Notes under the pieces: model-generated
What the model was told of the DNA's origin: nothing
Seen by the model: the letters and a program-made list of their open reading frames with translations, nothing else
Database searches by the model: none
Source: Candidatus Saccharimonadia bacterium
GTDB taxonomy: Bacteria; Patescibacteriota; Saccharimonadia; UBA4664
Assembly (NCBI GenBank): GCA_036488585.1
Contig: DASXHH010000008.1
Span: 3,069 to 67,068, forward strand
Reading direction: 5' to 3'
Length of the DNA: 64,000 bases
Part shown: positions 294 to 19,886 of the stretch, piece by piece
Position numbering within the stretch: the stretch's first letter is position 1
Layout of the letters: every line of letters begins with the position of its first letter
Made by a program: the position numbers and the translations under genes

Positions 294-1175
294 CTAGTAG
301 GTCCCTGTAGCCACCAGTGTCATGCTACCCGAATACCCACCACTTGGAGTTAGCGTCGATATGTTAGCCAAAAAAGTCACTGTGTAATCGGTTTCCCCGG
401 AGCTCTTTGGTCCCGAAGCCACCGTCTCACCGGAAACATATCGATAGGCTGCCGATAGTCCACCCACTGTGTAGGGACGTGTGGAGCCGTAGGTCCCGGT
501 GATGCCATCACCTGCCACGCCATAACAAAAACCTGTAGCCTGACAAGCCGGATCTGCGGAACCCGGCACCGGGTCCACCGGGCTCCGATCGGCTACCAGG
601 TTTATACCAAACTGCTCAGTTCCTACAGCCGACCCGCAACCCCACGCATTACCACATGTAGCCGTCGTGATGGCAGTAAGATTATGACCACTGTACGAAG
701 GCGTGGAACCTATCGCTTGCACTACGTAACCCGACGATGTGTAATCACTCACTGAAAAGGAAGCAGTCTTAGTAGTCGCTACAGCCGTAGAGAGCACGCC
801 AAAGTTAATTGATGCGGTGTTAATAGAAAGCATAAGGCCCGGCTGTGCGGTGGTATCGAACCCCGCATTGCTCTGGTAGTTACTCGAAGCCGAGTTGCCT
901 ACCGTCGCCTCACCCAGACTCGAGCCGCCATCGTCGGTGGCCGGGTTTAGTGAGTAGTTCGACGATGCACCACAGGTATATACCCCAGACACCTGCGAGC
1001 AACCGTTGCCGCCCACCTCGGTCTCGGTAGCGCTGTAGTTACTGGAGGTCATGGTGGGATCCGACGCGCTAAACGCTCCGCCAGCCGTCGCCAGCACTAG
1101 GCAAGCACCAATTACAAGCTGTCGTCTCCATCCACGCATTACACCCATCTTGCCGCATTTTGACGCTCTGTGCAA
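294..1175 (-). CDS. Secreted surface protein with N-terminal signal peptide and a C-terminal tail (…SGSMTLVATGTY) related to the WxL-like paralog family at 17260-20945
   Basis: N-terminus MHRASKCGKMGVMRGWRRQLVIGACLVLATAGGAFSA reads as a signal peptide. The mature protein is Ser/Thr/Gly-rich with SSNY repeats like the 19887-20945 protein. Its C-terminal block TDYTVTF…YSGSMTLVATGTY resembles the DYTDTLTVVGAG[YN]F tails. Confidence 0.5.
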   Translation of the reverse strand: MHRASKCGKMGVMRGWRRQLVIGACLVLATAGGAFSASDPTMTSSNYSATETEVGGNGCSQVSGVYTCGASSNYSLNPATDDGGSSLGEATVGNSASSNYQSNAGFDTTAQPGLMLSINTASINFGVLSTAVATTKTASFSVSDYTSSGYVVQAIGSTPSYSGHNLTAITTATCGNAWGCGSAVGTEQFGINLVADRSPVDPVPGSADPACQATGFCYGVAGDGITGTYGSTRPYTVGGLSAAYRYVSGETVASGPKSSGETDYTVTFLANISTLTPSGGYSGSMTLVATGTY

Positions 1176-1243
1176 TCCGCTTGCGCTTGCGTGACAACTC
1201 GACCATAAGCGGTATAATAATGGCGTATTAATGTATCAACCCA

Positions 1244-2149
1244 ATGCCGCCCAGCCAGGCGCCCGATAATCAATCTCCCAAGCCACGAAAGAACAAGAGT
1301 TGGGACACCCTCAAAACCCGTGCCAACGCTGGCGCTAGTATCGCCGCGCTGTTTATTTTTCTGGCGGGCTGTGGTGCCGCTATCGGTTATTACTACGCAC
1401 AGTCAAAGAAATCCCCTGCTCAACCGCAATCGACCATCCAGACTCTCTCATCCCAGGACATCGAGAGGCTCAACGAAATCGGTGCCAATCTCGGCAGTGC
1501 CGGCCAGAAGCTAAACGTGGGCGCCGACGCGCTCTTCCGCGGCAAGGCCGATGTCACCGGCGATCTGACTGTAGGCGGCCGGCTCAACGCCAACGGACCG
1601 GTCACGCTCAGCCAGCTCAACATCACTGGCAACACTGCCGCCTCCGGCCTCAACGTTGGCTCCAACCTCAACGTTACGGGCAACACCACTTTCGGTGGCA
1701 CCCTCACCGTCAACAAGCTCACCACCGTCAACTCCAACCTTAACGTCTCTGGCAACGCCAGCGTCGGCGCGCTCAGCGCCACCTCCATTGCCGTCCGCAG
1801 CATCACCATCTCCGGCCCGCTCACCATTTCGCACCTGGTCAGCCAGGGCACCGTCCCGTCCGCCGCCGCCCTCAGCGTCGGCGGCGGCGGCACTGTCTCC
1901 ATCTCTGGTAATGACACCACGGGCCAGGTCGACGTTAACACCGGCTCCGGTCCTGGCTCCGCCCTAGCCCAAGTCACCTTCCGCGCTGCCTACAGCGGCA
2001 CCGTTCACGTGCAGCTCACTCCCCTCACTGCGGACGCGGCCACTTCCGGCTACTACGTCATACCCAACGGCGGTTCCGGTTTCCAGGTCCATGCCGTAAA
2101 TCCGCCACCGGGCAAGACCCTCCAGTTCGACTATCTTGTAATGCAATAA
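1244..2149 (+). CDS. Membrane-anchored (N-terminal TM) beta-helix/solenoid-repeat protein with a C-terminal H-type-lectin-like domain
   Basis: Basic N-terminus then a TM helix (SIAALFIFLAGCGAAIGYYYA). Short Gly/Asn/Thr repeats follow (LNVxGNxxxxGxLxV…). C-terminal VTFRAAYSGTVHVQLTPL…SGFQVHAV…FDYLVMQ parallels the Helix pomatia agglutinin pattern ITFxxP(Y/F)xxPVV…SxTGF…SW(I/V). It is a paralog of 23375-24439. Confidence 0.5.
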   Translation: MPPSQAPDNQSPKPRKNKSWDTLKTRANAGASIAALFIFLAGCGAAIGYYYAQSKKSPAQPQSTIQTLSSQDIERLNEIGANLGSAGQKLNVGADALFRGKADVTGDLTVGGRLNANGPVTLSQLNITGNTAASGLNVGSNLNVTGNTTFGGTLTVNKLTTVNSNLNVSGNASVGALSATSIAVRSITISGPLTISHLVSQGTVPSAAALSVGGGGTVSISGNDTTGQVDVNTGSGPGSALAQVTFRAAYSGTVHVQLTPLTADAATSGYYVIPNGGSGFQVHAVNPPPGKTLQFDYLVMQ

Positions 2150-2151
2150 CA

Positions 2152-2186
2152 AACGAAGAGCTGCACATGAAGTGTGGCTCTTCGTT
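2152..2186. terminator. Hairpin between the convergent genes 1244-2149(+) and 2185-2391(-), a possible bidirectional terminator
   Basis: 10-bp stem aacgaagagc (2152-2161) pairs with gctcttcgtt (2177-2186) around a 15-nt loop. There is only a weak T-run. Confidence 0.3.
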
Positions 2187-2391
2187 AAGCTTTATGAGTC
2201 TTCAGCTCAATAATCTCTTCGGCCCGACGGTTCTCCAACCGCTTCATGCCGTTCAGCTCTAGCTCGAGCTTAGCAATCCGCGTCTTGAGCGCCCGAAATT
2301 GCCGGTCGTTGGCCGCAAACCCCTGACGTATCTGCTCCCCCAACGCCGAAAACTCGTGCTTAATCTGCTCATCCATAGAAGTTGCCTGCAC
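2185..2391 (-). CDS. Small charged coiled-coil hypothetical protein (68 aa) at the distal end of the giant surface-protein operon
   Basis: ORF with heptad-like charged sequence (…RALKTRIAKLELELNGMKRLENRRAEEIIELK). No recognisable homology. Confidence 0.3.
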   Translation of the reverse strand: MQATSMDEQIKHEFSALGEQIRQGFAANDRQFRALKTRIAKLELELNGMKRLENRRAEEIIELKTHKA

Positions 2392-2459
2392 CCCCGCTTC
2401 TATTTCAGTATCCCCTCATCTCTAAAACTATGCTACCAACAAAAACCGTAAAAACAATA

Positions 2460-5400
2460 CTACTGCGCGGTATCAAGCAAGCAACCGTTCGCGATCACAC
2501 GGTTACAACCTGTGTTCGTAAACGACGCCCCGTGCCGCAGTCGCCGACCCGGGTTGGGGTGGTAGAAGATGTTAATGTCGGTAGCCACACTTCCGGTATC
2601 GGGGAATGTCCCCGTGTATTGGTCGTCAATTGTCAAAAAGATGTAGTAGTTAAACGCGATACCCACATCCGTACCAGAGCCATCTAGCGCCTTCAGGAAG
2701 TAAAACTTGTTCGCATAGTCCGGCACGATGTTCTGCGGCACGCCAAACGTCGTCGAACCAACCGCCGCCGTGCGCATCGTCACCACGTACTGACCGGTAC
2801 CGTTCACCTGCACCAGCGTCGGCGAGGTGTTCACCTCGGTGTTGAACATCTTCGAGTAGTGCCCCTTACGCGCCTCGGCCTTCTGGCCCACATAGTCCAC
2901 ATTCGTTATGGCCGACGAGCAGGTCCCGCTGCTCAACGTGCAGCCACCTACCAGATAGAAAAACCCATCGTTAAACGCTACCGCACCGTGGGCGTGAGCG
3001 TTGGGCATTCCCACACTTGACGCTCGGGACATCTGCCCCAACGTATTGTTAGCATTAATCGGCGCGAACTGCACCTCCGTAGCCGAGTTCTCATCGCCAA
3101 AGAAGTACATAAACCCATTCGCCCCTACCATCGGCCGTGCCCGCCCATTCAGATCCTGGTAGTTCGTATACTTGAAGGCGTGGAGCGAACCGTCCGTATT
3201 CAATGTGGCGTACTGGATATCACCGAGATTATTTGTGCCATCGTAGCCTCCTGAAACATACAAAGCAGACGCATAACCCATAGCGCTCAAATCAAATCTA
3301 GTAGTAGAAAAATTATTGCTGCTTGTGCACCAAGTGTTGGTAAGGGTACCGTCACTGCACACCGGCGACAACACAGGACCCGACTCGCTCATTTCCGTGT
3401 ATAGCACATCGCTCTTAGATGTTGTGCATACTCCACTGGTAGCCGCCGTGCAACCACCGGCCACATACATATAACCTCCGGATGTGGAGATACCAAACGC
3501 TCTCCTTCCTGTCGGCAGAAACCCGCTGGTGCTCTGAGCAGATGTATCGGTCCATCCCGTAATCACTCCAGTCGTGCTCAAAGTCGCATACAGCACCGAA
3601 TTATCAAACGGACTACTCGGAGTGGAGCCACCTACTATGTAGATCCTGCCCGAGTAGCCAATCGCACCGCCCAGCGCCCGGCCGGTGGCCAATTGTTGAT
3701 CTACTGTGTTATCCGTAGCTGTCCATGAACCTAAGGATCCGTCAGCGTTAATGGTGGCATGCTGGACCGCCGTCGACCAGGCCGAGCAGTTTCCCGATGT
3801 ATATGCCGTGCAACCGCCAATAATATACAAGTTACCGTTGTACGCCACGCTCATCAGGTCCGACCTCGCCGGGGATAGCGCTGTTCCGGTAGACCAGGCG
3901 TTCCCCGGCGATGTGGTCACCAGACTGGTCAGCCCTGTGCCGCCATTAATGGCACTGGCATACTCCGCCGAGGCCAAATAGGTCGTACACGGGTTGGTAA
4001 CTACCGAGCACCCTCCTACCGCGTATAATCTACCCCCCGAGCTCACCGCCCCCGCCCCCCACCGCGCCGTCGTCAATGTGCGTGCACTAGTATTCCAGGC
4101 CGTCACGTTGCCACTCGCATCCAAGGTGCCAAACGAAACCGCATTGCTCACGGCGGGTGTACCCGCAGTATTAATGCCACCAAACAGATAGATAACGCTT
4201 TTTAATACTGTCGCACCCACAAACTTATGGCCTACTGATGTAGACGATAATGAGGCCTGGCCCGTAGAGGAAAACGCTCCCACATACCCATCCGCACTGC
4301 TTATCGCGGCCCTTTGAGTATCGCTCAGTGCGTTGCCGCTCCCGTCCACACCGGCGACCAGATACAAATACCCATAGTAGGCCACTCCACCAAATCCATA
4401 TCTCGCCGTCGTGAACGTATTGCCGACCTTGCACCAGTTATTGGTGAGGGTCCCGCCGTTGGCCACACAGTTCGTCGGGCTGGCAAACGTCCCTGCCCCG
4501 GTAACCTGCGTATACTCCACGGTATTGAAAGGCCCACCCGTTCCGGTCCCACCCATAATGTAGATGTAATTCTGATATGTCACGGCCGAAAGCCAATACC
4601 TGGGCGACGAAAACGTATTGGTCTCGGTGGTCCAGGAAGTAATGCTGCCCGAGCTTGGCGTCGCAGAATAAACTGCTGTCGAGCCGGCTGTCGATCCAGA
4701 ACCGGTCCCGCCCAGGAAGTACACCTTGCCGCCAAATGCCGCCAGCGCACCGCCATACTTCACCGCCGGCAAGCCGGTCTGGGCTGTCCACGTCCCCACC
4801 GTACCGTCATCATTTATTGGCGCCGAATCGACATTAGTAAGCGCCGTGCCACAGTTCGTCCCATTGCAACCACCCGCAACGTACAGGTAGCCGTCATAAG
4901 CCAATGTTGCCGCACCATCGCGCGCGGTAGCCACACTACCTCCCGAAGCGGGGCTCTTCAGGTCACCGGGGTAGGTAACCGAACTGTTAATCGTGGCGTT
5001 GATAATTGCGTATTGCGAATCCCCTAGCGCCGCAAAGCAGTTGTTGTTGTTGTTTGGTTCGCTGGTGCACCCTCCGATCGAATACAACACACCATTATAA
5101 GCGGCCACACTATTGTAGAACCGCGCCGTAGTGATATTCGTGGACGTGTCCCACTGCCCTACGGTCCCGTCGGAGTTCACCACCGCAAAATAAGTTCCAT
5201 TCAACAGACTCGAGCACGGCACTGTAGAGGCACACCCACCCACGAGATAGATATACCCATCCTCCACATCCAATCCCCCACTCCGCCAACCAGTCGGAAG
5301 TACATTCGCAAATGCGGTAGTAGTAGCCCAGGTCGCAAGCGAGTTATCGTTCTGGATAGTCACGTACTGCACATCGGTGAGGACGGAACCACTGTAACCA

Positions 5401-7070
5401 CCGGCAATATACAGGTAGCCGTTGTACGAGACCATCGCGAACCGGTCGCGGCCGGTAGTGAAGCTACTAGCCGTACACCAGTTGGTCGCCGTCCCCGACA
5501 ATGTACAGCCGGCACTCGGCTTGGTCAGTGTCCCGTCCGAGTTGATCTGGGTGTATTCGCAGGTATTTGTGAGCGTACCATTGTTCTTGGCTAGCGCGCC
5601 ACCGCAGACATAAAAGTAACCGTTGTACTCGGCCGCTCCCATGTACGCCCGGGCAAAACCGATGGCATTACCCGAAATATCCGACCAGGCGTTGGGAATA
5701 TCACCGTTACTCCCCACCTGCGCGGATTCCACATCCTTGTACCGCGTACCACCGTTAGCGTTCTCACCTCCGATCACATACAGGTAACCGTTGAACCCCA
5801 ACAGCGCCGTGCCGGTGCGACCAAGAGTAAAGTGGTTAGTCGCCACATTCCAGGTGCCCAACGTTCCGTTGCTTTGAATCTGTGTGTAGCACACATAGGT
5901 TCCCGAACCGTCACCGCCTCCGGCCAAATAAAGGTAGCCGTTATAAGCAGTTAGACCGAAGTTGTAATCGGCGCCAGCCGAAGAGCAGCCGGTCGGCAGA
6001 CTGCCGCTCACCGCTGTGTTCCACGAGCTCACCAAACCGCCCGTAATTGGCGCGCGATTCAGCTGACCGTCGGTGCCGCTGGGGGTCGTTAGAGTCAGGT
6101 TATCCTCCACCTTGCCGAGCAAGAAGTCCGACGTGCTGGTGATCACGAACGACGGGTCTATGCTCAGCGGATATGCCGCCTTCGAGAACCCGGTCGCCAC
6201 CACGGTCAATGTGTTGCCGTTCAGCACGAAATGCGCCTTCACGCCGTGGGTACCACCATCCGCTTGATTCACCACGGGCGCCGGGATCTCGAACATCAGG
6301 TAGGTCTTATCGGCCTTCTTGCGCGCGTCCATCACCTTCGCGCGGTCCTTATCGGTCGAGAAACTAATGTTTCCAAACAGTGCCGGATCGCCCGAAAACA
6401 CCCCCACGGCCCCGTTAGCCAGTAGCCGCGCCTGCAGACCGTCGTCCAACTTCAACTGGTAATCGTACTTCACCCGATCACCCACTGTCCGGTCGAGCAC
6501 GATGTCTTCCTTCACCCCGTTGCCCTTAGGGGTAAGTGCCAGTACTCCGGGGTTGTCACTGAGCGGGTACAACACCCGGTTGCCCACCTTGCGTCCGTCC
6601 ATCAGCGAGTACTGCGGCGTCATCGTCGCCGACACCTGGTGCTGCGTATCGGTGAGCTTGATACCCGCGTCGGCTTTGGTCGGGAGCTTGGCCGAGTACG
6701 GCTCTTTCTTGCTATCGCTGCCCACGCGTACCATACCGTCGTCGCCCGCCGGCGACTGGCCATCCTTATTGAAGTACACCGCGTCGTCCTTCTGGTCGTA
6801 CTTGAGCTGCCCACCCAGTTGGTCGCTCGCGTGGGTCATCACCTTCGTCTCGTCGTCGAACAGATGGTACCGCGCCTCGCCCTGCATATACCCAAGCACC
6901 GGCGCCACCATGCCGCCGACCGTCACACCAATCACCAGGGCATGCAACGGTTTGCGCACGTCCACCTGTCGCACATTTTTCCTAACCCAACCCAGCCACC
7001 GGCCATTTTGAGGCCAGGTAGCAGGGAGCAAATGTGTCACAAATCCTTCAAGCCAAAGCTTAGGTGTCAC
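2460..7070 (-). CDS. Giant (1536 aa) membrane-anchored Kelch-repeat protein, with roughly 17 Kelch blades arranged as about three beta-propellers
   Basis: N-terminal hydrophobic anchor (ALVIGVTVGGMVAPVLGY). At least 17 repeats carry the Kelch signature hydrophobic-Y-x-x-GG with a W about 20-25 residues after, e.g. NGYLYVIGG, YNGYFYVCGG, YNGYLYIAGG, DGYIYLVGG, YDGYLYVAGG, SGRIYIVGG, DGFFYLVGG. Confidence 0.7.
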   Translation of the reverse strand: MTPKLWLEGFVTHLLPATWPQNGRWLGWVRKNVRQVDVRKPLHALVIGVTVGGMVAPVLGYMQGEARYHLFDDETKVMTHASDQLGGQLKYDQKDDAVYFNKDGQSPAGDDGMVRVGSDSKKEPYSAKLPTKADAGIKLTDTQHQVSATMTPQYSLMDGRKVGNRVLYPLSDNPGVLALTPKGNGVKEDIVLDRTVGDRVKYDYQLKLDDGLQARLLANGAVGVFSGDPALFGNISFSTDKDRAKVMDARKKADKTYLMFEIPAPVVNQADGGTHGVKAHFVLNGNTLTVVATGFSKAAYPLSIDPSFVITSTSDFLLGKVEDNLTLTTPSGTDGQLNRAPITGGLVSSWNTAVSGSLPTGCSSAGADYNFGLTAYNGYLYLAGGGDGSGTYVCYTQIQSNGTLGTWNVATNHFTLGRTGTALLGFNGYLYVIGGENANGGTRYKDVESAQVGSNGDIPNAWSDISGNAIGFARAYMGAAEYNGYFYVCGGALAKNNGTLTNTCEYTQINSDGTLTKPSAGCTLSGTATNWCTASSFTTGRDRFAMVSYNGYLYIAGGYSGSVLTDVQYVTIQNDNSLATWATTTAFANVLPTGWRSGGLDVEDGYIYLVGGCASTVPCSSLLNGTYFAVVNSDGTVGQWDTSTNITTARFYNSVAAYNGVLYSIGGCTSEPNNNNNCFAALGDSQYAIINATINSSVTYPGDLKSPASGGSVATARDGAATLAYDGYLYVAGGCNGTNCGTALTNVDSAPINDDGTVGTWTAQTGLPAVKYGGALAAFGGKVYFLGGTGSGSTAGSTAVYSATPSSGSITSWTTETNTFSSPRYWLSAVTYQNYIYIMGGTGTGGPFNTVEYTQVTGAGTFASPTNCVANGGTLTNNWCKVGNTFTTARYGFGGVAYYGYLYLVAGVDGSGNALSDTQRAAISSADGYVGAFSSTGQASLSSTSVGHKFVGATVLKSVIYLFGGINTAGTPAVSNAVSFGTLDASGNVTAWNTSARTLTTARWGAGAVSSGGRLYAVGGCSVVTNPCTTYLASAEYASAINGGTGLTSLVTTSPGNAWSTGTALSPARSDLMSVAYNGNLYIIGGCTAYTSGNCSAWSTAVQHATINADGSLGSWTATDNTVDQQLATGRALGGAIGYSGRIYIVGGSTPSSPFDNSVLYATLSTTGVITGWTDTSAQSTSGFLPTGRRAFGISTSGGYMYVAGGCTAATSGVCTTSKSDVLYTEMSESGPVLSPVCSDGTLTNTWCTSSNNFSTTRFDLSAMGYASALYVSGGYDGTNNLGDIQYATLNTDGSLHAFKYTNYQDLNGRARPMVGANGFMYFFGDENSATEVQFAPINANNTLGQMSRASSVGMPNAHAHGAVAFNDGFFYLVGGCTLSSGTCSSAITNVDYVGQKAEARKGHYSKMFNTEVNTSPTLVQVNGTGQYVVTMRTAAVGSTTFGVPQNIVPDYANKFYFLKALDGSGTDVGIAFNYYIFLTIDDQYTGTFPDTGSVATDINIFYHPNPGRRLRHGASFTNTGCNRVIANGCLLDTAQ

Positions 7071-7738: not shown

Positions 7739-10700
7739 CTACTTACCCTTCATGCTGAAGGTGATCCGCCCGGCGTATGAGAAGGCGTTGTTCTTGGACG
7801 ACATATCAACCCGGAAAATGATGATGTCTCCTGGTGAGAACCCGCAGGTGTTAGGATCGGTTGCATATGATACTGTCTGCCACGTGTTCGCGGAAGTCGT
7901 AACATTAGTGGATGTCCCACAAGCAGCACCGCTGTTCTCGAATACCGAGTACGCGACATCTGCATCGGTGGTCGACGAGACCCGGCCCACCATCTTCAGC
8001 GTAGTCGAGTTCAGGAACCCGCCGAAGGTCGGCGGCAACTGGTACTTCACATAAATGCTATAGGTCTGAGCAGACACCTGTGAAGTCGTCCACTGGTAGT
8101 AGTTGAACTCCTCACCACTGTTAGCGCATAAGGTCGCGTTGATGCCCTGGGCGTTCGAGCAGATGTTGGCGGTCATGGTACCGATGTGCGTGTCCGTACC
8201 CACACCCGGGTTCAACACAGCGCCGGCGTATTCGGGCTCGAGAATCAGGTTCGAGTCAGGTGCAGCACCACATGAACCCCAGCCGTCCTTCTCATAGCAC
8301 TGGATGCGGCCAAGCGTAGTGCTGTAGTACATGGAACCGAGCATGTTCTGGTTCACAGCACCCGCGACCGGATCGTTGGCAAAAGAGTCGAGCTGGAAGA
8401 TGGTGAGACCCTGGCTCAAGGGACCACCCACCTGGAGCTCACCAGTGTTTAACGAACCCGAAGTGCTTTGGGCGCCGACAAACAAGTTGTCGATGTACAG
8501 GTGGCGCGTAGTAGCATCAGCTGCACGTATGCGGATGTGGTTGGCTGTAGTCTTCGCGGTCGCAGAGGTTGTGAAGTAGCAGGTCCACTTGAAGAACCCA
8601 GTGGTGGTAATGGTGCCGTTGTCCGGGGTGGTGCAAGTGGCGTCTAGGTTAGTGGCGTCTCTGTAGTACTCCACGATCAGGTTAGCATTGGTCGGCGCCG
8701 AGGTCCCGGCCTTGATGTTGAACGATACGTTGTACAGCTGACTAGTGGACAAAGCAGTGCCACTCAGGTCGTTGTCAGCGCCGCCGGCCCCAGTAAGGCT
8801 AATGTCTAGAGATCCAGTACCCGATGCCAGATTAGTGGCAGATATATTTCGTAACAACGAAGCGCTTCCGGTCGCGGTCCAGCCGGTCGTACCCGTACCC
8901 TCAAGGCCGCTGTTGTCGGCCAGGTTGGCACCCGTAGCGGTGTTAGTGGTGTCAACGTGCAGTACCGGAGCAGCCAAGCTGTTACCAATCTGGAACAGGT
9001 TGGCGTTGTCGTAACCAACACCCGCCTGGAAAAGCAGGTTCTTGGTGGCAGAAGTGGTGATAATGCCGGCCGGCGCTGTTGAGGTGTTGTCGTAAACCTG
9101 CTGCAACGAGGACGCAGTAGTGGTACCACTCCAGTTAGTTCCGTTCCAGATCAAAGTCGAGGTGTTACCGGCTCCCATGTTCACGCTCGAGGTCATACCG
9201 AACGCAGACAATGTAAATGACCCTGATCCAGAAGCCGCTGAAACCAAAACGATATGGCCCGGTGTGGTATTGGTCGGCGCCGGCAGGCTAACGATAGCGC
9301 CCGTAAAGGCCCCAGTCGTTACATTCACGACGATCGTGCCGTAGGTATCTACATCGGACTGGCTGACGTTGAAGGTCTGGGGGCTGCTGGACTGAGTAAA
9401 GCTCTCGCTATTCGAATTGAAGACCGGCGAGCCTAGGCTCACGATACCAGGCGAACCCGTGCCATGCGCTGTCCCAGCCGTCAGCGAAATGCTTCCGCCA
9501 GCGTTGTTGTTGGCCAGGGCGTTACCGCCCTGCAGTGTAATACTACCGCCTGCGCCCTGGCTACTAGCAGCACCGGAGCCGCCGTTGGTCGCCGCGATAA
9601 CCACTAATCCGCCCGCACCGCTCGAGCCCGCCGCACCGCCGGTCACGTGGACCGTACCACCGTTGCCGGTCCCCGCTCCGGCACCACCCACGACGTTCGA
9701 GTCGCCACCGGCCGTGTTACCGCCACCACCGGCGCCACCGGTCAGAGATGCCACACCGCCCGCGCCAGTTGTACCGCCGGCTCCAGCCACCAACACCAGG
9801 TTACCACCCGCGCCAGTGCCATTGCCGGCCGCCGACCGCACCGTCAGCTTGTTGCCAGCCGTGTTGGTCGCCGTCTGGTCATCCACCGCCAACACCCGGT
9901 CGGCACCAACCCCAAACTGCAAATCTATCCCACTCTGTACCGCAGGGTTGGTCGCCGTCCCGCCCACATTTATGCCCAATCCATAGCTCGTCACCGTCAA
10001 GATCGAGGCCCCCAGCGTATCACCCGTCTGTGCCGCCCGTACTCCAAACAATTCCTGGCCCGCGCTCATGCCCGACGAGATCGCCGACTGCACCGTCACC
10101 GCCTTGTTGGTCAACGTTTCCAAAATACTTGGCTGCGCACCGGCCGAGTTGTTATAGGCATCCTGCAGCTTCACTACGCTACCGGCCGAATTGAACGTCG
10201 TCGTCCAGTTGGAGCCATCATAGATCAGCATGATGATGTTACCTACCGGCACCGACTGACCCACTACCGTTATCGCACTGGTGGAAGCCACCAGATTGCT
10301 GATGTAAATGATCGAACCCGCCCCCGCCGTTGGTGTACCAATAGATGCAGATGTAAGCGTGGTCGTCCCTGTATCGGTAATCGTAAACGTCGTACAATCA
10401 TTCACGCTCTTAGGGGAGGTGAAAGATAATGTACCGGACGCGCCCGTGTACGCGCACACTACATTCTGCGTGGCACCATTGTTCTTAAATAAGGTCGACG
10501 AGCCAGTCGATCCCACTGTCACGCTATTATTGGCGATCAAATTGCCGGTCACGCCGCTAATCGTCACAGCCGTCGACAACGAGTTGGCTGACGAGCCAGT
10601 AGAGCCAGGCTTCGCAATCTTAAAGTTAATGTCGCCACCGTTGCCAGTACCGGTGCCGATCCCGCCGGCTATCGTAAAGCTGGCCCCAGCGATATTACTT

Positions 10701-13411
10701 CCAGTACCTCCCGTCGCGTGCAGCGCAATGCTAGTCGGCGAAGCATCCGTCACACCCGATCCAAAATACGCATCCTGAACGTAAAAACCGGATGAAGTCG
10801 AACCTCCCACCACCAGCTCATTACTAGCCCCAGCCACCGCACTTGTACCAATGGCAATACTACTAGCGGCCGCGTTGGCGTGTACACCTATTGCCACGCC
10901 ATATGCAGCCGCTGCCGTGCCATACCCCAAAGCGACCCCACCCGGTCCAGTAGTATTGGCACCGTATCCAACAGCCGTACTGTACTGAGTCGCTATTGCC
11001 GAATAGCCGAAAGCCGCGCCCTGCGCCGCCGCTACTGCACTGTCGCCAGCCGCCACGGCCTGAGTCCCCGATAGTGACGCGTTTAAGCCAAACGACTCAC
11101 TATTGGTATAGCCCTGCGTATTAGTAATGTATGCATTTGGCCCCTGCAAATTCAAACCGGTGTTATACCCCAGGTCTACCGCATTTGAACTTGAATCGGA
11201 CGTCAATGCCGATCCAGATGCCGTATAAGTGGCATAAATAGACGCTTCATAGCTCGTATCGTAGAAGGTGCCCGCCCCGGTCACCGAACCAAACGACGCC
11301 GGCATGCTACCGCCAAACGCCCGGGTATTAAATACGAACGGCGACCCCGCGCCAGATGGGTTCACCAACGCCTCATCGCTCAGTGTCGAGTCGTTAGTCC
11401 AAAACGCCAGCCAATAGGTAGTGTTAGCCGCCAGCGTCACGCCGGAAATCGCCATCGCGTTCCAGGAATTACCTGTCAGTCCTGTCTGTGCAGTAGAGGA
11501 GATTAGCGTTGACGGACAATCTGGGTTCGGCGAACAACCCGAGCTGGTATCGGCGTAAATACCCATCTGGCCAAGGGCTCCACCGGTAACTCCCGAGTGT
11601 ATGTACACAGACATACTCCCGATTGAACCTGCCCCTGTCGGAGAGGTAGTAAACTTTTGAGCCGTCAGCAAACCATAGTCCGAAGCACCAGCCGTCCCAA
11701 TCGTGCCGTTTCCTAGCGTCCCAGTCGGCGCCTTACCCAACGTCACCTTATCAGCATCTGTAGCCTTCAGTAGCTCGAAACCTCCCGAATCTTGCACATC
11801 GAGCACCGTTGAGTTGGCACTGGCGTTTTGCACGCTTAATGTCGCACTCGGCGAAGCGCCGTCAATGCCCACCCGACCGCTCGCCGTATCCACTACCAGA
11901 TCCGCGGTGGTACCAGTGCCGTTCTTCACCTGAAAAGCCGTGGATGAATCATGACCACTGGTCGGTTGCACCAACGCCGTACCGTTGATGGTGGTCGCGA
12001 TGTTACTGGTAGTGTTGCCAAGATTGATGGCGTTGGCGTTTAGATTGCCTACGGTCAATGCACCAGCACTGGCAGTATCCAGCCGTGGGCCATAAAACGC
12101 CGTGGTCGCAGTGACGGTGCCGGTAAAGTTTGCTGCCGCCGAAATAGTTTGGCCGTTTACTGTATCGGTAGTGCTTGAGCCGCCATTTTGCGTTACATTG
12201 CCACTCGAATCCACCGCAAATTTACTAACACTCCCCGACTGCAGATCAATCAGGTTGCCACTTGGGCTACTGGCCGTGTTATTGGCCACGATCAGCGCGT
12301 TGCCCGATCCCGGGTTGCCGCTGGCTGTCACGTACAGCGCGTCGCCGGTGTTGGTCTGGTTGTCGAGCGACAGCACCCCGCTCGCCACCGCCGAGCTGGT
12401 GTTCTTAAAACCATACAGATAGTTCGTAGCCGTCACCGCAAACTGCGAGGTATCAGCCGCATTCTTGGCCAAGTAACTACCTGCCACCTGGTAAGTCGCA
12501 CTACAAGTGCTGGCCACCGTGGTGCACACCGTGCCACCCGCATCCGGGAACGTAATCGTATTGTTATGCGTTGGCGTGGTGAACCCAACTGTCGTCGTGT
12601 TGATACCGTTAGTCGCCGTCAGTGTCGAGGTCGAGTTGCCCTGAATCACAAACGGCGTGGTCGTGCGGCCGATCTTGATATTGCTGGCCATACCGGTACC
12701 GATGTCGAGCTCTACCCCGGTAGTCGTATCCACCAGCGGCGCTTGCAGGCTAGTATTTGCGATCACATTACCGGTCACCGCCAGCGAACCAGTCTGCGCG
12801 CTCTCCGAACCCACTGTCTGTAGCTGCCCAAACGCACTCGAGTCCAACCCGTCCAGCAGATTCGAGTTCATCGCATACGGTGCGGCCGTAAACCGGATCA
12901 TCGGCAGCATCTCACCATCGCCGCCAGCAGCTCCAAACGTCACCGCAGTCGAGGTGCCACCCAGATTGATCGATAGCCAGATGGTGTTGTTGTTAAAAAT
13001 CGCCGGTAGCGACGTAATCGAGCCCAGGTCCACCTGGAACACGCCATCCGTTACCGTCACCCGGTTATCCGGCGAACCGCTGCCGTACACGTGATCCTCG
13101 GTCCATTGCAACGTGCCACCACATGGAGAACTCCCGCCACTCACGCACCCGTTACCACCGGTATAAAGCTTGAATTCTACGTTGTAGGTGCCGTTCGGTA
13201 CATTGGTCCCATCGGTGTTTACCAGCTTGCCCTGGAAGTTAATCTGGTTGTTAATCGCCGCCACGGCCGTACCCGGCTGCATCACTGCCACCAGTCCGCT
13301 CAGTAAGACCCCAAAAACACCAGTCACCGCTAGGGCCCTGGTTACTGCGATCCGGCGGTCTGTACCGGCTACCCTGCCTATGCGCCTGATCAGACGATAG
13401 AGGTCGCTCAC
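7739..13411 (-). CDS. Giant (1890 aa) secreted/anchored fibrous surface protein, Gly/Thr/Ser/Asn/Ala-rich, with a GGAGG-type Gly-rich tract and a Cys-containing C-terminal globular domain
   Basis: N-terminal signal anchor (ALAVTGVFGVLLSGLVAVMQPGTAVAA). Very low-complexity G/T/S/A/N composition. Internal …GAGGTTGAGGVASLTGGAGGGGNTAGG… tract around nt 9450-9900. C-terminal ~230 aa hold 8 or more Cys. All plus-strand ORFs inside are Pro/Arg-rich antisense artefacts. Confidence 0.7.
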   Translation of the reverse strand: MSDLYRLIRRIGRVAGTDRRIAVTRALAVTGVFGVLLSGLVAVMQPGTAVAAINNQINFQGKLVNTDGTNVPNGTYNVEFKLYTGGNGCVSGGSSPCGGTLQWTEDHVYGSGSPDNRVTVTDGVFQVDLGSITSLPAIFNNNTIWLSINLGGTSTAVTFGAAGGDGEMLPMIRFTAAPYAMNSNLLDGLDSSAFGQLQTVGSESAQTGSLAVTGNVIANTSLQAPLVDTTTGVELDIGTGMASNIKIGRTTTPFVIQGNSTSTLTATNGINTTTVGFTTPTHNNTITFPDAGGTVCTTVASTCSATYQVAGSYLAKNAADTSQFAVTATNYLYGFKNTSSAVASGVLSLDNQTNTGDALYVTASGNPGSGNALIVANNTASSPSGNLIDLQSGSVSKFAVDSSGNVTQNGGSSTTDTVNGQTISAAANFTGTVTATTAFYGPRLDTASAGALTVGNLNANAINLGNTTSNIATTINGTALVQPTSGHDSSTAFQVKNGTGTTADLVVDTASGRVGIDGASPSATLSVQNASANSTVLDVQDSGGFELLKATDADKVTLGKAPTGTLGNGTIGTAGASDYGLLTAQKFTTSPTGAGSIGSMSVYIHSGVTGGALGQMGIYADTSSGCSPNPDCPSTLISSTAQTGLTGNSWNAMAISGVTLAANTTYWLAFWTNDSTLSDEALVNPSGAGSPFVFNTRAFGGSMPASFGSVTGAGTFYDTSYEASIYATYTASGSALTSDSSSNAVDLGYNTGLNLQGPNAYITNTQGYTNSESFGLNASLSGTQAVAAGDSAVAAAQGAAFGYSAIATQYSTAVGYGANTTGPGGVALGYGTAAAAYGVAIGVHANAAASSIAIGTSAVAGASNELVVGGSTSSGFYVQDAYFGSGVTDASPTSIALHATGGTGSNIAGASFTIAGGIGTGTGNGGDINFKIAKPGSTGSSANSLSTAVTISGVTGNLIANNSVTVGSTGSSTLFKNNGATQNVVCAYTGASGTLSFTSPKSVNDCTTFTITDTGTTTLTSASIGTPTAGAGSIIYISNLVASTSAITVVGQSVPVGNIIMLIYDGSNWTTTFNSAGSVVKLQDAYNNSAGAQPSILETLTNKAVTVQSAISSGMSAGQELFGVRAAQTGDTLGASILTVTSYGLGINVGGTATNPAVQSGIDLQFGVGADRVLAVDDQTATNTAGNKLTVRSAAGNGTGAGGNLVLVAGAGGTTGAGGVASLTGGAGGGGNTAGGDSNVVGGAGAGTGNGGTVHVTGGAAGSSGAGGLVVIAATNGGSGAASSQGAGGSITLQGGNALANNNAGGSISLTAGTAHGTGSPGIVSLGSPVFNSNSESFTQSSSPQTFNVSQSDVDTYGTIVVNVTTGAFTGAIVSLPAPTNTTPGHIVLVSAASGSGSFTLSAFGMTSSVNMGAGNTSTLIWNGTNWSGTTTASSLQQVYDNTSTAPAGIITTSATKNLLFQAGVGYDNANLFQIGNSLAAPVLHVDTTNTATGANLADNSGLEGTGTTGWTATGSASLLRNISATNLASGTGSLDISLTGAGGADNDLSGTALSTSQLYNVSFNIKAGTSAPTNANLIVEYYRDATNLDATCTTPDNGTITTTGFFKWTCYFTTSATAKTTANHIRIRAADATTRHLYIDNLFVGAQSTSGSLNTGELQVGGPLSQGLTIFQLDSFANDPVAGAVNQNMLGSMYYSTTLGRIQCYEKDGWGSCGAAPDSNLILEPEYAGAVLNPGVGTDTHIGTMTANICSNAQGINATLCANSGEEFNYYQWTTSQVSAQTYSIYVKYQLPPTFGGFLNSTTLKMVGRVSSTTDADVAYSVFENSGAACGTSTNVTTSANTWQTVSYATDPNTCGFSPGDIIIFRVDMSSKNNAFSYAGRITFSMKGK

Positions 13412-14711: not shown

Positions 14712-15161
14712 ATGATACTATCTGGCAAACAACTCACGCTGTGCGTGGTTCTCGGAGTCCTCCTCGGCACTGGCATGATCGCCACTCACACCGGGCCCGG
14801 CCTCGCCGCTGACGTTGCCAACACGCCGCACAGCCGCAATACCGTGCGTCAAAACGACTTGAACACGCTGGCCCAAGCGCTGGCCCAATACAAAACCGAC
14901 CACACCGCTTTTCCTGTAAAACTCCCTGCCACCGACACACCCATTTGCACCAGCGCCGGCCAGGATTGCACCTCCAAGCACTACGCCGACCTCAGCTTCC
15001 TCATTACCGGCGGCGATTACCTCACCGCCATCCCGGTGGATCCAGGCCAGGCAGTTGGCCTCTGGGCCAGCGGCTACAACATCTCGCAGCTACCAGACGG
15101 CACCATCCGTCTTACCGCCCCCCAAGCCGAAGCTGGGGCCACCATCTCGGTCGTCCGCTAA
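14712..15161 (+). CDS. Secreted small protein with a pilin/pseudopilin-like segment (RQNDLNTLAQALAQYKTDHTAFP) and a Cys pair, possibly pilin-like
   Basis: N-terminal hydrophobic signal (LTLCVVLGVLLGTGMIA). The segment resembles the post-helix region of type IV pilins/GspG. No canonical G|FTLIE prepilin site. Its 3' end overlaps the convergent gene at 15112 by 50 nt. Confidence 0.35.
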   Translation: MILSGKQLTLCVVLGVLLGTGMIATHTGPGLAADVANTPHSRNTVRQNDLNTLAQALAQYKTDHTAFPVKLPATDTPICTSAGQDCTSKHYADLSFLITGGDYLTAIPVDPGQAVGLWASGYNISQLPDGTIRLTAPQAEAGATISVVR

Positions 15162-16080
15162 CGAGCCACCACACTCCGAGTCCCAGCATTGCCAATAACA
15201 GCACCGCCACCGCCCACAGCCACCAGGCGCCGGCGTACCAGAAGCTCACCCGCGCCGATTGCGTTGTGGTCGTGCCGTCGTACCGGTATACCGTGGTCGC
15301 CGTGTACCGGCCCGGCAGCCAGGCGTTGGCCAGCTGGACCAAGGGCGTCTGGTACCGCCGAAAACTTCCCGGCAAAATAATTCCTGAATCTTCATTGAGC
15401 GCGCCTCGCATCACCTGCCGGCCCAACGGGTCCTGGATCGTCACCGTCCCCCGCGGCACCACGTGCACTGCCCCGTCGTCCAAGAACCGTTCATTGACAT
15501 TAACTGGCAGACTCAGGGCTCCCCTGCCCCCCAGGGTTTGATCCACCAGCCTCAAATTTGGCGGAGCGCTACCATCCTTCAGCAAAAACAGAAGCGAGGA
15601 CAACACCTGCGTAATACCCACTCGCGAATTCTTGGCCGCATCCGTCGGGGCGGTCTGCGCTTCTGCCTCTAGTGCTGCGTAGTGGCCGCCCGACGCCAAC
15701 GACTGCGCATTATCAATCGTCATCCCAATCTGCACCGTGGCGCCGGCCGGCACCGTGGCATCGTGCTTGTCCAACGATACCCAGTTAGTAAGTCCGTGAG
15801 CTTTCTCGAAATCGCTCGTCGCATCGTTTAAAAATGCCACTCCTCCCGATTCGTCCAACGAACCAAAATCCTTAACCTCAAACCTGAACGTCTGGCTCAC
15901 CGCCGAATTGTTCGTCAACATCACCGTGTATTGCGCGCTCGCCTGGTTCTGGCCCAGACTCACCTCTTGGTACACTGGTGAGATTGTCAGCCCGGAGCCG
16001 CCACCAACCGCCAAACCAACTTGTGGCCAAGCCGCCCCCACCAGGGCCAGCGCCAGCCCCCTACTTACACGGCGCTTCAT
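15112..16080 (-). CDS. DUF916/CscA-like cell-surface protein (signal peptide, Ig-like body, C-terminal TM helix and basic tail), copy 2
   Basis: The ORF track starts at 16197, but the signal peptide begins at the in-frame ATG 16080 (MKRRVSRGLALALVGAAWPQVGLA). This ATG overlaps the upstream gene's TGA in an ATGA arrangement at 16077-16080. C-terminal WWLWAVAVLLLAMLGLGVWWLV plus an R-rich tail. Architecture matches DUF916 proteins of Gram-positive Csc/WxL loci. Confidence 0.5.
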   Translation of the reverse strand: MKRRVSRGLALALVGAAWPQVGLAVGGGSGLTISPVYQEVSLGQNQASAQYTVMLTNNSAVSQTFRFEVKDFGSLDESGGVAFLNDATSDFEKAHGLTNWVSLDKHDATVPAGATVQIGMTIDNAQSLASGGHYAALEAEAQTAPTDAAKNSRVGITQVLSSLLFLLKDGSAPPNLRLVDQTLGGRGALSLPVNVNERFLDDGAVHVVPRGTVTIQDPLGRQVMRGALNEDSGIILPGSFRRYQTPLVQLANAWLPGRYTATTVYRYDGTTTTQSARVSFWYAGAWWLWAVAVLLLAMLGLGVWWLVSGRPRWWPQLRLGGR

Positions 16081-17243
16081 CTGCGCTTGCCGAACTTGCG
16101 CACCACCTTTGTCCAGCCCATCGCCCGCCGCGCGCTCGAGTACAGTCCGAATCCGACCACCAACAGTATCGCCAGCACCACCAGCAGCATCCGCCACGGT
16201 ATCACCCAGAATGTCAGCGTACTCTCCATCGGCACATCATGCCCAAAATTATCAGGATAGGTAATTAACAGGTGCGCCGTGTACTCACCAAATCGGAAGT
16301 TAGTTAAGGGATTACGGCTTTGCTTTGCAATAAAATCATCCTCACCTGATGAAATTGCCGATGTCTTATCGGGCTCTGGCAGACCCCAATTTAGCACTCG
16401 CACCGGATTACCCTTTTTATCTATCTTGTTTTTACCGTCAATTTTTACGTCGTTGAAATATGGGAATCCATAATTCCACTCAGCACTAAAGGCCCGCGTG
16501 CTACCGCTTAGCACCATCCCCAGCTCTGAGTTTACAGTCACCAACCCAACCTGCTTATTACCCTGGGAAATGAATATGTTGCCACCGGGACGCACAAAGA
16601 CGTTGCCGTTATTTTTTAACCGCACCGTAAAATCAGTCGGCAGGAATTCCATCACTCGGTGTGCCACGCTGAATGTTGCCAGCTGAAGTGACCGGCTAGC
16701 GCCAGGACTGTCCACGCTCATCATCACCAGTACCGCCGTGCCACCGGCAATTCCGCTCTGTCCATTTCCCACCTTTATTGTGTCACCCACCCGGCTAAAC
16801 ACCACCGCGTAATAATAGGAGAAAGCCGCGGATTTAGGCACGTTTACGGTCATCTTCACCGTCTGCCAAACATCATTTGGCGCCGTAAATGTCGGCCGAT
16901 CAAACGTCACCCAATCAAAGTAATCGTCTCCCGGCCCCCGATCACTAAGTTTTGGCTGGCCCGTCTCCCCTGTGGCACTAAACTTCATCAAGCTTACCTG
17001 CAGCTGCTCGGTATCACCACCCGACTGCTTGATCTTGATGTCGGTGCTCGCACTCTGGCCGGGTTTCGTGTTGAGAACAATCGGCAAGGGCGAGGTAGTT
17101 AGCCTGAGCGGTGCGGTTGGCCGTGTCAGCGGTGTTGCGGTAGCCTTCGCCGCCTCAGCCACCCCGGTCCAAATCGGCGTTACCGGCCCCACTACCATCG
17201 CCACCGCCAAAAATAAAGCACCTAACATTTTTATATTGCCCAT
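16077..17243 (-). CDS. DUF916/CscA-like cell-surface protein (signal peptide, Ig-like body, C-terminal TM helix and K/R tail), copy 1
   Basis: N-terminal MGNIKMLGALFLAVAMVVGPVTPIWTGVAEA and C-terminal WRMLLVVLAILLVVGFGLYSSARR…KFGKRR. Body …IKIKQSGGDTEQLQVSLMKFSATGE… looks like the DUF916 N-domain. Confidence 0.55.
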   Translation of the reverse strand: MGNIKMLGALFLAVAMVVGPVTPIWTGVAEAAKATATPLTRPTAPLRLTTSPLPIVLNTKPGQSASTDIKIKQSGGDTEQLQVSLMKFSATGETGQPKLSDRGPGDDYFDWVTFDRPTFTAPNDVWQTVKMTVNVPKSAAFSYYYAVVFSRVGDTIKVGNGQSGIAGGTAVLVMMSVDSPGASRSLQLATFSVAHRVMEFLPTDFTVRLKNNGNVFVRPGGNIFISQGNKQVGLVTVNSELGMVLSGSTRAFSAEWNYGFPYFNDVKIDGKNKIDKKGNPVRVLNWGLPEPDKTSAISSGEDDFIAKQSRNPLTNFRFGEYTAHLLITYPDNFGHDVPMESTLTFWVIPWRMLLVVLAILLVVGFGLYSSARRAMGWTKVVRKFGKRR

Positions 17244-17259
17244 AACTGTAATTCTCCTT

Positions 17260-18381
17260 CTAGAAATAACCTGCCCCGACCACTGTTAGCGTATCAGTAT
17301 AGTCGGTGGCGGCTGGTGTAACGGATGTAATCGCAACACGCTCCTTTAGTAGCAAGGCGTCTCCATTTGAAGTGCCGCCCGCACATTGCCCTATCTGTTG
17401 GAAGTTAGCCGTGGCCGCTCCAGAATACCGGTCTGTGCCCAGCGGCGAACCATCAACCGAAGCGGTATTGTACTCCGGCGCCACCCCCATTGTGCAGGTA
17501 CTGGTACCGGAAGCAGCGATCGTCACTGCGAGTCCATACTTGCTCGAAACATTCGGCTGCAAATGCGTTGGTGCTGCCGCATTCCACCCCACGGATCCTA
17601 TCAATCCGGTGGAACCTCCAATACTCGTCGACTGCAAGCCTTGGTTGGCCGACTTCGCCCACGCCACCCACCCCTGCTTGGCGTTGGTGTGCACCGTCAC
17701 GGAAATACCTTGCGATTCGTTCACCGCTGTGTAATCCAAGTTGCCGGTATGAGGTACGGGATCGGTAGTGCCTCCCAGATCAAATTGGAAGATTGGCGGT
17801 ACCACCGCCGATACGTTAATTTGGTCCTGGCCGGTATCGACTACTGCAAATGCGATGTTGGCGCTATCGAGGTTCGTCGCTACATTTCCCCCCAGACTAC
17901 CAGACACGGTCGACCCGGTAACCAGCACCGACGAGTCCGTTAAGTTGAAGTTAAAGCAATACAGAGTACCAACAGTCAGTGTCATGGCCGGAGATACCGC
18001 AAAAGTGGCTGTCTTCGCCGAGTTATCCCCATCACCGTTTTGCACGTTTGTGAGTGCTGACGCCCCGCTCGGCCAGTACAGGTTACCAGAACCTACGCTG
18101 TCAGGGTCGGCAGTCGTGTTAGCTACAAAGTTTCCAGTTCCGGTAGCGAGCGTAAACGATGTCGGGAACTTGATTACCACGCTCGATGTCGAACCCGCGC
18201 TCGCCGGCTTAAAGCACACCGTGCCCCCGGTGTTCGTGCTCTTAGCCATTCGGTCCAACCGAACTAGAGCTACTTGAAGTTGACCGGCCTGAGCCCCACC
18301 CACCCACACTAAAGGGGTCAAAATGGTAGCCACAACCAACCAAACTCGCAGTCCTACTGACCGGCGCTGCCGCATGCACAC
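17260..18381 (-). CDS. Secreted protein with WxL-like C-terminal region (GWVAW…ATDYTDTLTVVGAGYF), paralog A
   Basis: Signal peptide (LRVWLVVATILTPLVWVGGAQA). Clear paralog of 18473-19756 (LVRLDRMAKSTNTGGTVCFK vs LVRLNRLHKNSVTGGTVCVK; NAKQGWVAWAKSAN vs NAKNGWVIWSKSAN). The tail YTDTLTVV resembles the WxL second motif YTGTLTWTL as I recall it. Confidence 0.5.
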   Translation of the reverse strand: MCMRQRRSVGLRVWLVVATILTPLVWVGGAQAGQLQVALVRLDRMAKSTNTGGTVCFKPASAGSTSSVVIKFPTSFTLATGTGNFVANTTADPDSVGSGNLYWPSGASALTNVQNGDGDNSAKTATFAVSPAMTLTVGTLYCFNFNLTDSSVLVTGSTVSGSLGGNVATNLDSANIAFAVVDTGQDQINVSAVVPPIFQFDLGGTTDPVPHTGNLDYTAVNESQGISVTVHTNAKQGWVAWAKSANQGLQSTSIGGSTGLIGSVGWNAAAPTHLQPNVSSKYGLAVTIAASGTSTCTMGVAPEYNTASVDGSPLGTDRYSGAATANFQQIGQCAGGTSNGDALLLKERVAITSVTPAATDYTDTLTVVGAGYF

Positions 18382-18472
18382 TCCATCACAAGTATGGAGG
18401 AATTATCTCAAAAGCATAAGCAGCTATCAAGCCCCTTATGCTTTATTTTGAGATTTGGCCCAGTCTATTGAC

Positions 18473-19756: not shown

Positions 19757-19886
19757 TCTTTTCTGTGTGTTGATAACTTTTTGGTTTTGTTAACTCTTAA
19801 GCTTAAGTCTAACCAGCACCATCATAAGTGTCAACAACTTTTACAACAGTTTTTTCCACAACACCAGAAGAAACGCGAGCTTAAGC

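Follow-up and report, generated by a model that had tools for sequence, protein, structure and literature searches.

How ultrasmall epibionts of the Candidate Phyla Radiation (CPR) and its Saccharimonadia recognise and hold specific host bacteria is largely unknown. The Pam pilus of the CPR, a chaperone-usher-like system with donor-strand exchange, was first reported in 2026 in a study that determined the structures of the PamA and PamB filaments of Ca. Mycosynbacter amalyticus and explicitly left open how these pili bind the host (Troman et al. 2026, bioRxiv 10.64898/2026.03.03.709456). The same authors proposed that PamT forms the tip, that PamC and PamD act as membrane-anchored chaperones and that PamR is the anchor; they found no dedicated trans-envelope machinery, and noted that the pam operon is consistently accompanied by a "tail fibre-like protein", to which they gave no role, accession or architecture. 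Here we analyse a gene at 1244..2149 (+) of a 64,000-nucleotide stretch of contig DASXHH010000008.1 from an uncultured Candidatus Saccharimonadia bacterium (TM7/CPR), hereafter the window, along with a paralogue encoded in the same window; the two are termed copy 1 and copy 2. We propose, at about even chances, that copy 1 is a surface-exposed, probably trimeric, receptor-binding fibre that is co-expressed with Pam pili and acts in short-range host binding. Its near-universal pairing with pam genes, together with a head of the phage-receptor-binding type carried on an anchored stalk, makes it a candidate, concrete and open to test, for the host-binding or specificity step at close range.

The copy 1 gene and its pairing with Pam pilus operons

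The open reading frame (ORF) of copy 1 runs from an ATG start to a TAA stop and encodes 301 amino acids, exactly as given in a preliminary description of this DNA. At NCBI the identical protein is filed as hypothetical from a Candidatus Saccharimonadia metagenome-assembled genome (MAG), and its relatives come from Saccharimonadia/Patescibacteria MAGs. More than 287 homologues of about 300 residues each were recovered at 49-84% identity, none of which bears a precomputed Pfam domain, and some of which are named in JGI data as "cytoskeletal protein CcmA (bactofilin family)" or "fibronectin-binding autotransporter adhesin". An alignment of 110 orthologues (A1) conserves the MPP… start, W20, a 23-residue hydrophobic segment, L68/L76/L83, a Gly/Asn/Leu/Val repeat region and a C-terminal block, and this conservation indicates that the gene is real and under selection.

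A putative sigma-70-like promoter (GTGACA-16 nt-TATAAT; 1191..1218, +) lies 25 nucleotides upstream of the ATG. It agrees with the consensus at 11 of 12 positions, is the sole such site within 1000..2500, and is situated in the divergent intergenic region of about 70-95 nucleotides that copy 1 has in common with pamT. Just 3' of the stop codon, between convergent genes, a 10-bp inverted repeat (AACGAAGAGC…GCTCTTCGTT; 2152..2186, strand unassigned) could be read from the sequence. It is a possible terminator hairpin, with no T-run following it, and the terminator scan made no call at this position. With the promoter-like site upstream and the inverted repeat after the stop, the gene appears to be monocistronic. 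The convergent gene is a small ORF (2185..2391, -) encoding a helical, charged protein of 68 residues with no family assignment; a 63-residue gene was called at this position in two independent contigs.

The divergent neighbour of copy 1 (294..1175, -) encodes a PamT-like tip pilin and is the first gene of a Pam operon running past the left edge of the window. We searched it with the NCBIfam Pam models (NF058578/79/81, from Troman et al. 2026): its product scored 107.6 bits with NF058581 (Pam_pilin_C, Pam pilus system pilin subunit; cut-off 55) and 178 bits with the model "CPR-type pilus protein PamT", which is under the 240-bit cut-off of the latter. A Logan contig carrying the identical gene (L080) shows three more Pam pilins beyond the left edge. 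Two long contigs have the copy 1 orthologue head-to-head with pamT, after which come three pilins, a gene without assignment and pamR. PamT, Pam pilins and PamR are confirmed by NCBIfam across the window and the two long contigs.

The same arrangement was recovered in a scan of species-representative genomes, which yielded 75 loci; with few exceptions their titles read Saccharimonadia, Saccharibacteria or Patescibacteria, or they were unclassified. Using a pilin hidden Markov model built from nine sequences passing NF058581, we scored the 62 loci with at least 1.3 kb of upstream sequence, and found a divergent Pam pilin ORF beside the copy 1 homologue in 61 of them at a median distance of 123 nucleotides, followed by one to four more pilins. 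The homologues at these loci span 31-57% identity. Copy 1 itself gave no match at E<=1 with NF058581 or NF058579. Its candidacy as a Pam pilin or tip adhesin was rejected because it has no pilin domain or donor-strand features, and it is neither a chaperone nor PamR.

The paralogue, copy 2 (23375..24439, +; 354 residues; 28% identity, E 2e-21), has the architecture of copy 1 preceded by a conserved N-terminal tail of 85 residues. It defines an orthologue group of its own, which is present in the same genomes as the copy 1 group, and the domain at the C-terminus of these proteins occurs on no ORF in the window other than copy 1 and copy 2. The pre-membrane tail (residues 1-85; 23375..23630, +) is partly well conserved among 118 orthologues, with the pattern …QAEPLSDGTVPTVL…ASLTxIYRRADIxTTL. 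This conservation suggests a motif for interactions in the cytoplasm and not simply a spacer. Copy 2 in turn is head-to-head with a second, PamR-led Pam-like operon (15112..22680, -), whose PamR scores 286 bits against a cut-off of 300. The preliminary description had noted that the two copies bracket a super-cluster of surface genes, and this was borne out: the spacing is about 22 kb in the window and 23 kb in a contig of 1.09 Mb. It had nonetheless overlooked the decisive context, namely the divergent pairing of each copy with a donor-strand pilus operon of the Pam type. Judged from gene order, the rule behind this is that every pilus operon has a single fibre gene, with a common short divergent control region.

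The head domain and the H-type lectin question

The C-terminal part of copy 1 (residues 197-301; 1832..2146, +) is predicted to form a beta-sandwich head, with H197, G202, P205, G222, D224, G227 and F280 invariant and a motif of the form ISGNDTxG. When residues 186-301 were modelled alone with AlphaFold2 (AF2; alignment A2), the result was a confident sandwich of eight strands and one short helix, with a predicted local distance difference test score (pLDDT) of 93.3 and a predicted TM-score of 0.83, so that the separate C-terminal domain postulated earlier is upheld. A Foldseek search of the predicted viral structures of BFVD with this model retrieved two uncultured Caudovirales proteins, A0A6J5N1S0 (884 residues; E 4.5e-8, TM-score 0.85, root mean square deviation 2.6 A, 26% identity) and A0A6J5T5J5 (604 residues; E 1.6e-7, TM-score 0.79), and two proteins from a metagenomic "Marseillevirus" bin (E 1e-3, TM-score 0.64), one of which is named putative tail fiber protein. 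As modelled, the closest structural relatives of the head are thus phage tail-fibre-type proteins.

BFVD supplies no target alignment coordinates, and the placement of the domain within its host proteins was taken from the 150 listed sequence relatives. An exhaustive profile search detected the head in 3757 clusters at the 50% identity level (E<=1e-3), and in all 150 matches listed it is C-terminal. Most of these proteins are of 280-380 residues and have the copy 1 architecture, and some are of 557-2832 residues. Of the latter, P0241 has a Peptidase_S74 tail-fibre chaperone domain (E 4e-13), and CBM_4_9 occurs in P0261 and P0264. This C-terminal position, along with the company of Peptidase_S74 and CBM_4_9, marks the head as a "tip" module that is widespread at the distal end of fibre-like proteins. 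The long proteins ending in the head domain, all encoded outside the window and reaching 2832 residues, include P0159, P0206, P0241, P0261, P0264 and P0265.

The likeness of both head and stalk to phage fibre proteins might equally be read as the mark of a prophage remnant or cargo, that is, of a true tail-fibre gene that lies beside pilus genes by chance. We find this scarcely credible: the surrounding genes encode pili, giant surface proteins and housekeeping functions, and none is a phage gene, the place beside pamT is fixed in 61 of the 62 genomes, the two ancient paralogues are about 22-23 kb apart in both the window and the 1.09-Mb contig, and a transmembrane (TM) anchor at the N-terminus takes the place of a baseplate-attachment domain. 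A prophage tail fibre was rejected on the ground of this fixed chromosomal synteny.

The preliminary description had likened the C-terminus to the H-type lectins, which are described as binding N-acetylgalactosamine (GalNAc; PMC8878817), and had envisaged a membrane-tethered lectin as a candidate adhesin for host glycans. The stretch that it named, VTFRAAY…FDYLV (residues 244-296; 1973..2131, +), coincides with an H_lectin-like core delineated by a Pfam match on an orthologue and by profile-profile alignment. Neither copy 1 nor copy 2 matches the H_lectin model PF09458, even at E<=10, and copy 1 thus does not pass the profile check that the preliminary description had itself put forward. Across the family, the model does match 3 of the 110 orthologues, with a best E of 2.9e-5, as well as 7 among 141 diverse relatives, and the orthologue P0101 (301 residues, 51% identity) reaches 24.5 bits against the curated cut-off of 24, with its residues 244-296 covering positions 3-61 of the 67 in the profile. 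A profile of the head family (141 sequences) aligned by hhalign with a five-sequence alignment of snail and coral H-type lectins gave a probability of 65% and a score of 29.7 over 61 collinear columns, the target being thin (effective number of sequences 1.9), as a homology search seeded with Helix pomatia agglutinin (HPA) had returned just three snail proteins. The highest score among 200 column- or block-shuffled controls was 21.3 (means 10-13, standard deviation 2.5); against HPA alone the family profile gave a probability of 7%. The family-level match to PF09458 together with an hhalign score above the shuffled controls makes a distant evolutionary link plausible, and the head is probably a distant relative of H_lectin at the level of the family.

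That copy 1 is a true H-type lectin, in the sense of a trimer specific for GalNAc or host glycans on a stalk, is a stronger claim. P0101 reaching the gathering score, the recurrence of sub-threshold matches and the margin over the shuffled alignments would favour it, but we consider it unlikely on several counts. There is no Pfam match on either copy, nor on any of the 118 copy 2 orthologues. We checked the HPA sequence against PDB entries 4q56 and 2ccv, the other solved H-type lectins being 3wmp, 2w94 and 2vm9. The block LDV..S.NLRV, identical in HPA and the coral lectin SLL-2 and the best conserved between them, faces variable T/S/G/A positions in the copy 1 family, and HPA Trp83/His84/Tyr89 align to Pro/Pro/Gln. 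In the HPA structure (Sanchez et al. 2006) this block is reported to hold the sugar-contacting Asn61/Arg63. The family-invariant ISGNDTxG, H197 and P205 all fall outside the H_lectin core. A Foldseek search of the PDB with the head gave a best E of 0.19 (TM-score 0.42), with none of 2ccv, 4q56, 3wmp, 2w94 and 2vm9 and no other H-type lectin among the 50 best matches listed, and likewise no H-type lectin among those listed for the full model. The missing block, the null result for copy 2, that from Foldseek and the motifs outside the core all count against a functional lectin. Profile searches of the PDB, both full-length and with the head, also found no lectin, their only match besides the stalk-driven one discussed below being a phage tube protein (E 0.026). 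A literature search found no link between Saccharibacteria and H-type lectins. Thus, of the lectin assignment a kinship at the family level survives without extending to a PF09458 match on copy 1 or to the LDV…NLRV block, and the binding of GalNAc or host glycans drew support from none of the tests made.

Anchor, stalk and proposed role

Ahead of the head copy 1 is predicted to consist of four further segments. Residues 1-28 (1244..1327, +) form a basic N-terminal tail, probably cytoplasmic given the charge bias, in which W20 is nearly invariant. Residues 29-51 (1328..1396, +) are the single TM helix, a predicted signal anchor with a hydrophobic counterpart in all orthologues; this segment, A29-Y51, lies inside a helix that AF2 models at 19-54 (pLDDT 91-93), in agreement with the lone N-terminal anchor of the preliminary description. 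Residues 52-88 (1397..1507, +) constitute a linker with a conserved amphipathic helix at 70-85, in which L68, L76 and L83 are invariant. The positively charged residues (K+R) within 15 positions of the membrane segment average 3.8 before it versus 2.8 after it in the 110 orthologues, with an excess on the N-terminal side in 73 and a deficit in 8. This bias makes a type II orientation (N-in, C-out) of copy 1 likely; as previously suggested, such an orientation is a reasonable reading of the positive-inside rule. An anti-sigma-type regulator was also considered and rejected, the cytoplasmic tail being just about 28 residues long with no recognisable domain.

Residues 89-196 (1508..1831, +) make up a Gly/Asn/Thr/Val-rich stalk of about 108 residues, in which a hydrophobic "L.V" pair recurs roughly every six residues to give about 17 units of the form LxVxG/N. 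Its autocorrelation peaks at 6, 12, 18 and 30, and the periodicity is bactofilin- and tail-fibre-like. The full-length AF2 model, computed from A1, has a mean pLDDT of 83.7, with helices at 19-54 and 70-85 and the beta-sandwich at about 200-301 (pLDDT 95-98). The Gly/Asn repeats of the preliminary description are therefore real and have a six-residue period, whereas the single-chain beta-solenoid that it had them form receives no support from the model, whose stalk has no beta bridges. Their absence would be unexpected of a single-chain solenoid; it hints that the stalk folds only as an oligomer, in the manner of phage fibres, and may indicate obligate oligomerisation. The similarities that the stalk shows to other proteins are all weak: a profile of the family matched the PDB "putative tail fiber protein" 9cuy_g (E 0.008) by virtue of the repeats, tblastn recovered jumbo-phage "long tail fiber proximal subunit" genes (E 2e-4 to 3e-3), and PHROG tail families matched at E 0.002-0.1.

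The commonest Pfam match of the family is Bactofilin (PF04519), with sub-threshold hits in 77 of the 110 orthologues and 63 of the 141 diverse relatives (best E 2.6e-6). Taken with the names given to several JGI homologues, it would suggest a membrane-tethered, cytoplasmic, bactofilin-like cytoskeletal protein in the opposite topology (N-out, C-in). We judge this very improbable, as the match on copy 1 (residues 92-179, E 0.0066) amounts to 17.1 bits where the gathering score is 27.9, N-in is the topology favoured by the charge bias, a beta-helix of the bactofilin type is absent from the model, and the C-terminal domain is common to phage proteins and proteins containing carbohydrate-binding modules (CBMs). 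Bactofilins are not known to have a TM helix. A true bactofilin was rejected on the sub-threshold score, the TM helix and the absence of a helical solenoid from the model.

Based on these observations we propose that copy 1 would be made together with the pili, from its own promoter in the divergent region common to pamT, and that its ectodomain would project outward, in the order basic cytoplasmic tail, TM helix, helical linker, hexapeptide-repeat stalk and beta-sandwich head. It would assemble as a trimer, as do phage fibres and H-type lectins, a state to which the unpaired stalk of the monomer model also points. The long Pam pili would make the first contact with the host, after which the membrane-anchored fibre would bind a ligand on the host surface at close range through its head. 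The head-to-head pairing with a Pam operon in nearly all related genomes makes copy 1 a good candidate for the host-binding partner of the pili.

Several points weigh against such a host-binding fibre. The charge bias across the membrane segment is modest. DSSP assigned no strands or bridges at all to residues 86-205 (1508..1858) of the AF2 monomer, where pLDDT is 64-88, and if the stalk were a compact single-chain helix (about 3 nm) the head might fail to reach beyond the cell wall and S-layer. We infer that the "tail fibre-like protein" of Troman et al. 2026, for which the preprint gives no accession, belongs to the copy 1 family. To these must be added, from the preceding section, the results unfavourable to a lectin-type head: the copy 2 orthologues without an H_lectin match, the variable LDV…NLRV block and the want of H-type lectins among the Foldseek matches listed.

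A different role, which we hold to be possible if doubtful, is that copy 1 is an envelope-internal part of the pilus base, either an assembly platform or anchor, or a binder of the cell's own wall glycans that guides the pilus through peptidoglycan and S-layer. An usher-less system needs some platform of this kind. The head-to-head position of copy 1 and copy 2, each with the leading gene of a different Pam-type operon, is conserved class-wide and would suit such a part, as would the short ectodomain of about 250 residues and the failure of the preprint to find trans-envelope machinery; the conserved juxtamembrane cytoplasmic residues (W20 in copy 1, the 85-residue tail in copy 2) likewise suggest more than a passive anchor. 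However, the models of the preprint already give anchoring to PamR and assembly to PamC/PamD, copy 1 has no Pam pilin or donor-strand features, and the relatives of its head are distal tips of phage fibre-like and CBM-containing proteins, which argues for outward binding of a ligand. More speculatively, the family could be an unrecognised core component of the Pam system, with two ancient paralogues, one per operon: either a domesticated phage tail-fibre module, re-anchored in the membrane as a determinant of host specificity, or the missing envelope-spanning platform of an usher-less donor-strand pilus. We regard this extended proposal as rather unlikely.

Returning to the receptor-binding fibre, were it correct it would be a case of phage fibre modules put to new use as organelles of the cell surface. 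The present analysis also corrects misleading database names ("bactofilin", "autotransporter adhesin") on some members of the family. The copy 1 gene is not strange in itself; its importance lies in being a well-supported lead on how CPR epibionts bind their hosts.

The second operon and comparison with described systems

The second Pam-like operon comprises seven genes. The first, PamR-like gene (21667..22680, -) scores 276-287 bits across the window and two other genomes against the cut-off of 300. Three pilin-like ORFs (19887..20945, 18473..19756 and 17260..18381, all -) end in …DYTDxxTVVxAGxF/Y and are all missed by the NCBIfam Pam_pilin_C model. The remainder are a small TM protein (246 residues) and two ORFs of about 360-390 residues with C-terminal TM helices, which could be chaperones of the PamC/D type. 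Sequence searches of the PDB with the neighbouring pilin-like and chaperone-like proteins found no match, and so none to PamA/PamB. In two other genomes the same seven-gene operon adjoins the copy 2 orthologue head-to-head. An ORF of 180 residues (22714..23256, -) separates the PamR-like gene from copy 2 in the window; the two other genomes examined have no counterpart of it in that place, and there the PamR-like gene and the copy 2 orthologue are about 90 nucleotides apart. Just outside the operon, an ORF of 149 residues (14712..15161, +) has a hydrophobic N-terminus with a "RQNDLNTLAQALAQY" stretch that recalls the N-terminus of type IV pilins or pseudopilins.

Between the two fibre genes are giant ORFs at 2460..7070 (-; 1536 residues) and 7739..13411 (-; 1890 residues). 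Orthologues of the former have Kelch/beta-propeller Pfam matches, and the latter itself has no Pfam match; in other genomes the same position also holds giant ORFs (4651 and 2971 residues). The minus strand carries most of the window's long ORFs, the two fibre genes being among the few on the plus strand. Of the 32 2-kb bins, 31 have a negative GC skew, which reaches -0.28, and the remaining bin is at +0.001.

Among described systems, the tail fibre-like protein of Troman et al. 2026 is like copy 1 in being co-localised with the Pam operon of Saccharimonadia and in resembling tail fibres. This co-localisation is already known, having been mentioned once in that preprint. The features added here are anchoring by a TM helix, a head that is H_lectin-like, the arrangement of the promoter region between head-to-head genes, and two paralogues each with an operon of its own; to our knowledge the architecture, the lectin-like/phage-tip head, the divergent promoter and the rule of one paralogue per operon are not described in the literature searched.

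The H-type lectins (HPA, 2CCV; SLL-2, 3WMP; the Dictyostelium discoidins, 2W94/2VM9) are small all-beta domains like the copy 1 head and have with it a collinear core of the form ITFxxxF/YxxxPxV … GF …. Unlike them, the copy 1 head is devoid of LDV…NLRV, goes undetected by the Pfam model, and possesses an extra N-terminal sub-structure with the invariant ISGNDTxG. Bactofilins (PF04519) have hexapeptide-like repeats in common with copy 1, which differs from them in its TM anchor, its predicted extracytoplasmic location and a model free of beta-helix. As a functional analogy, fibrillar and trimeric surface adhesins, and the two-step binding of phages through long and short fibres, offer a further parallel in that copy 1 would likewise present a stalk and head beside a longer filament; unlike such adhesins, it has a type II TM helix in place of an autotransporter, LPXTG or S-layer anchor.

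The nearest likeness is to the tip domains of phage fibres (A0A6J5N1S0, A0A6J5T5J5 and A0A481YZS4), which have the same predicted fold as the copy 1 head (TM-scores 0.85, 0.79 and 0.64, respectively) at 21-28% identity. Unlike phage fibres, copy 1 is short, has a TM helix at its N-terminus that anchors it in the membrane of the cell itself, and is encoded beside pilus genes. On these comparisons copy 1 is most like a receptor-binding fibre of a phage, re-anchored in the membrane of a cell.

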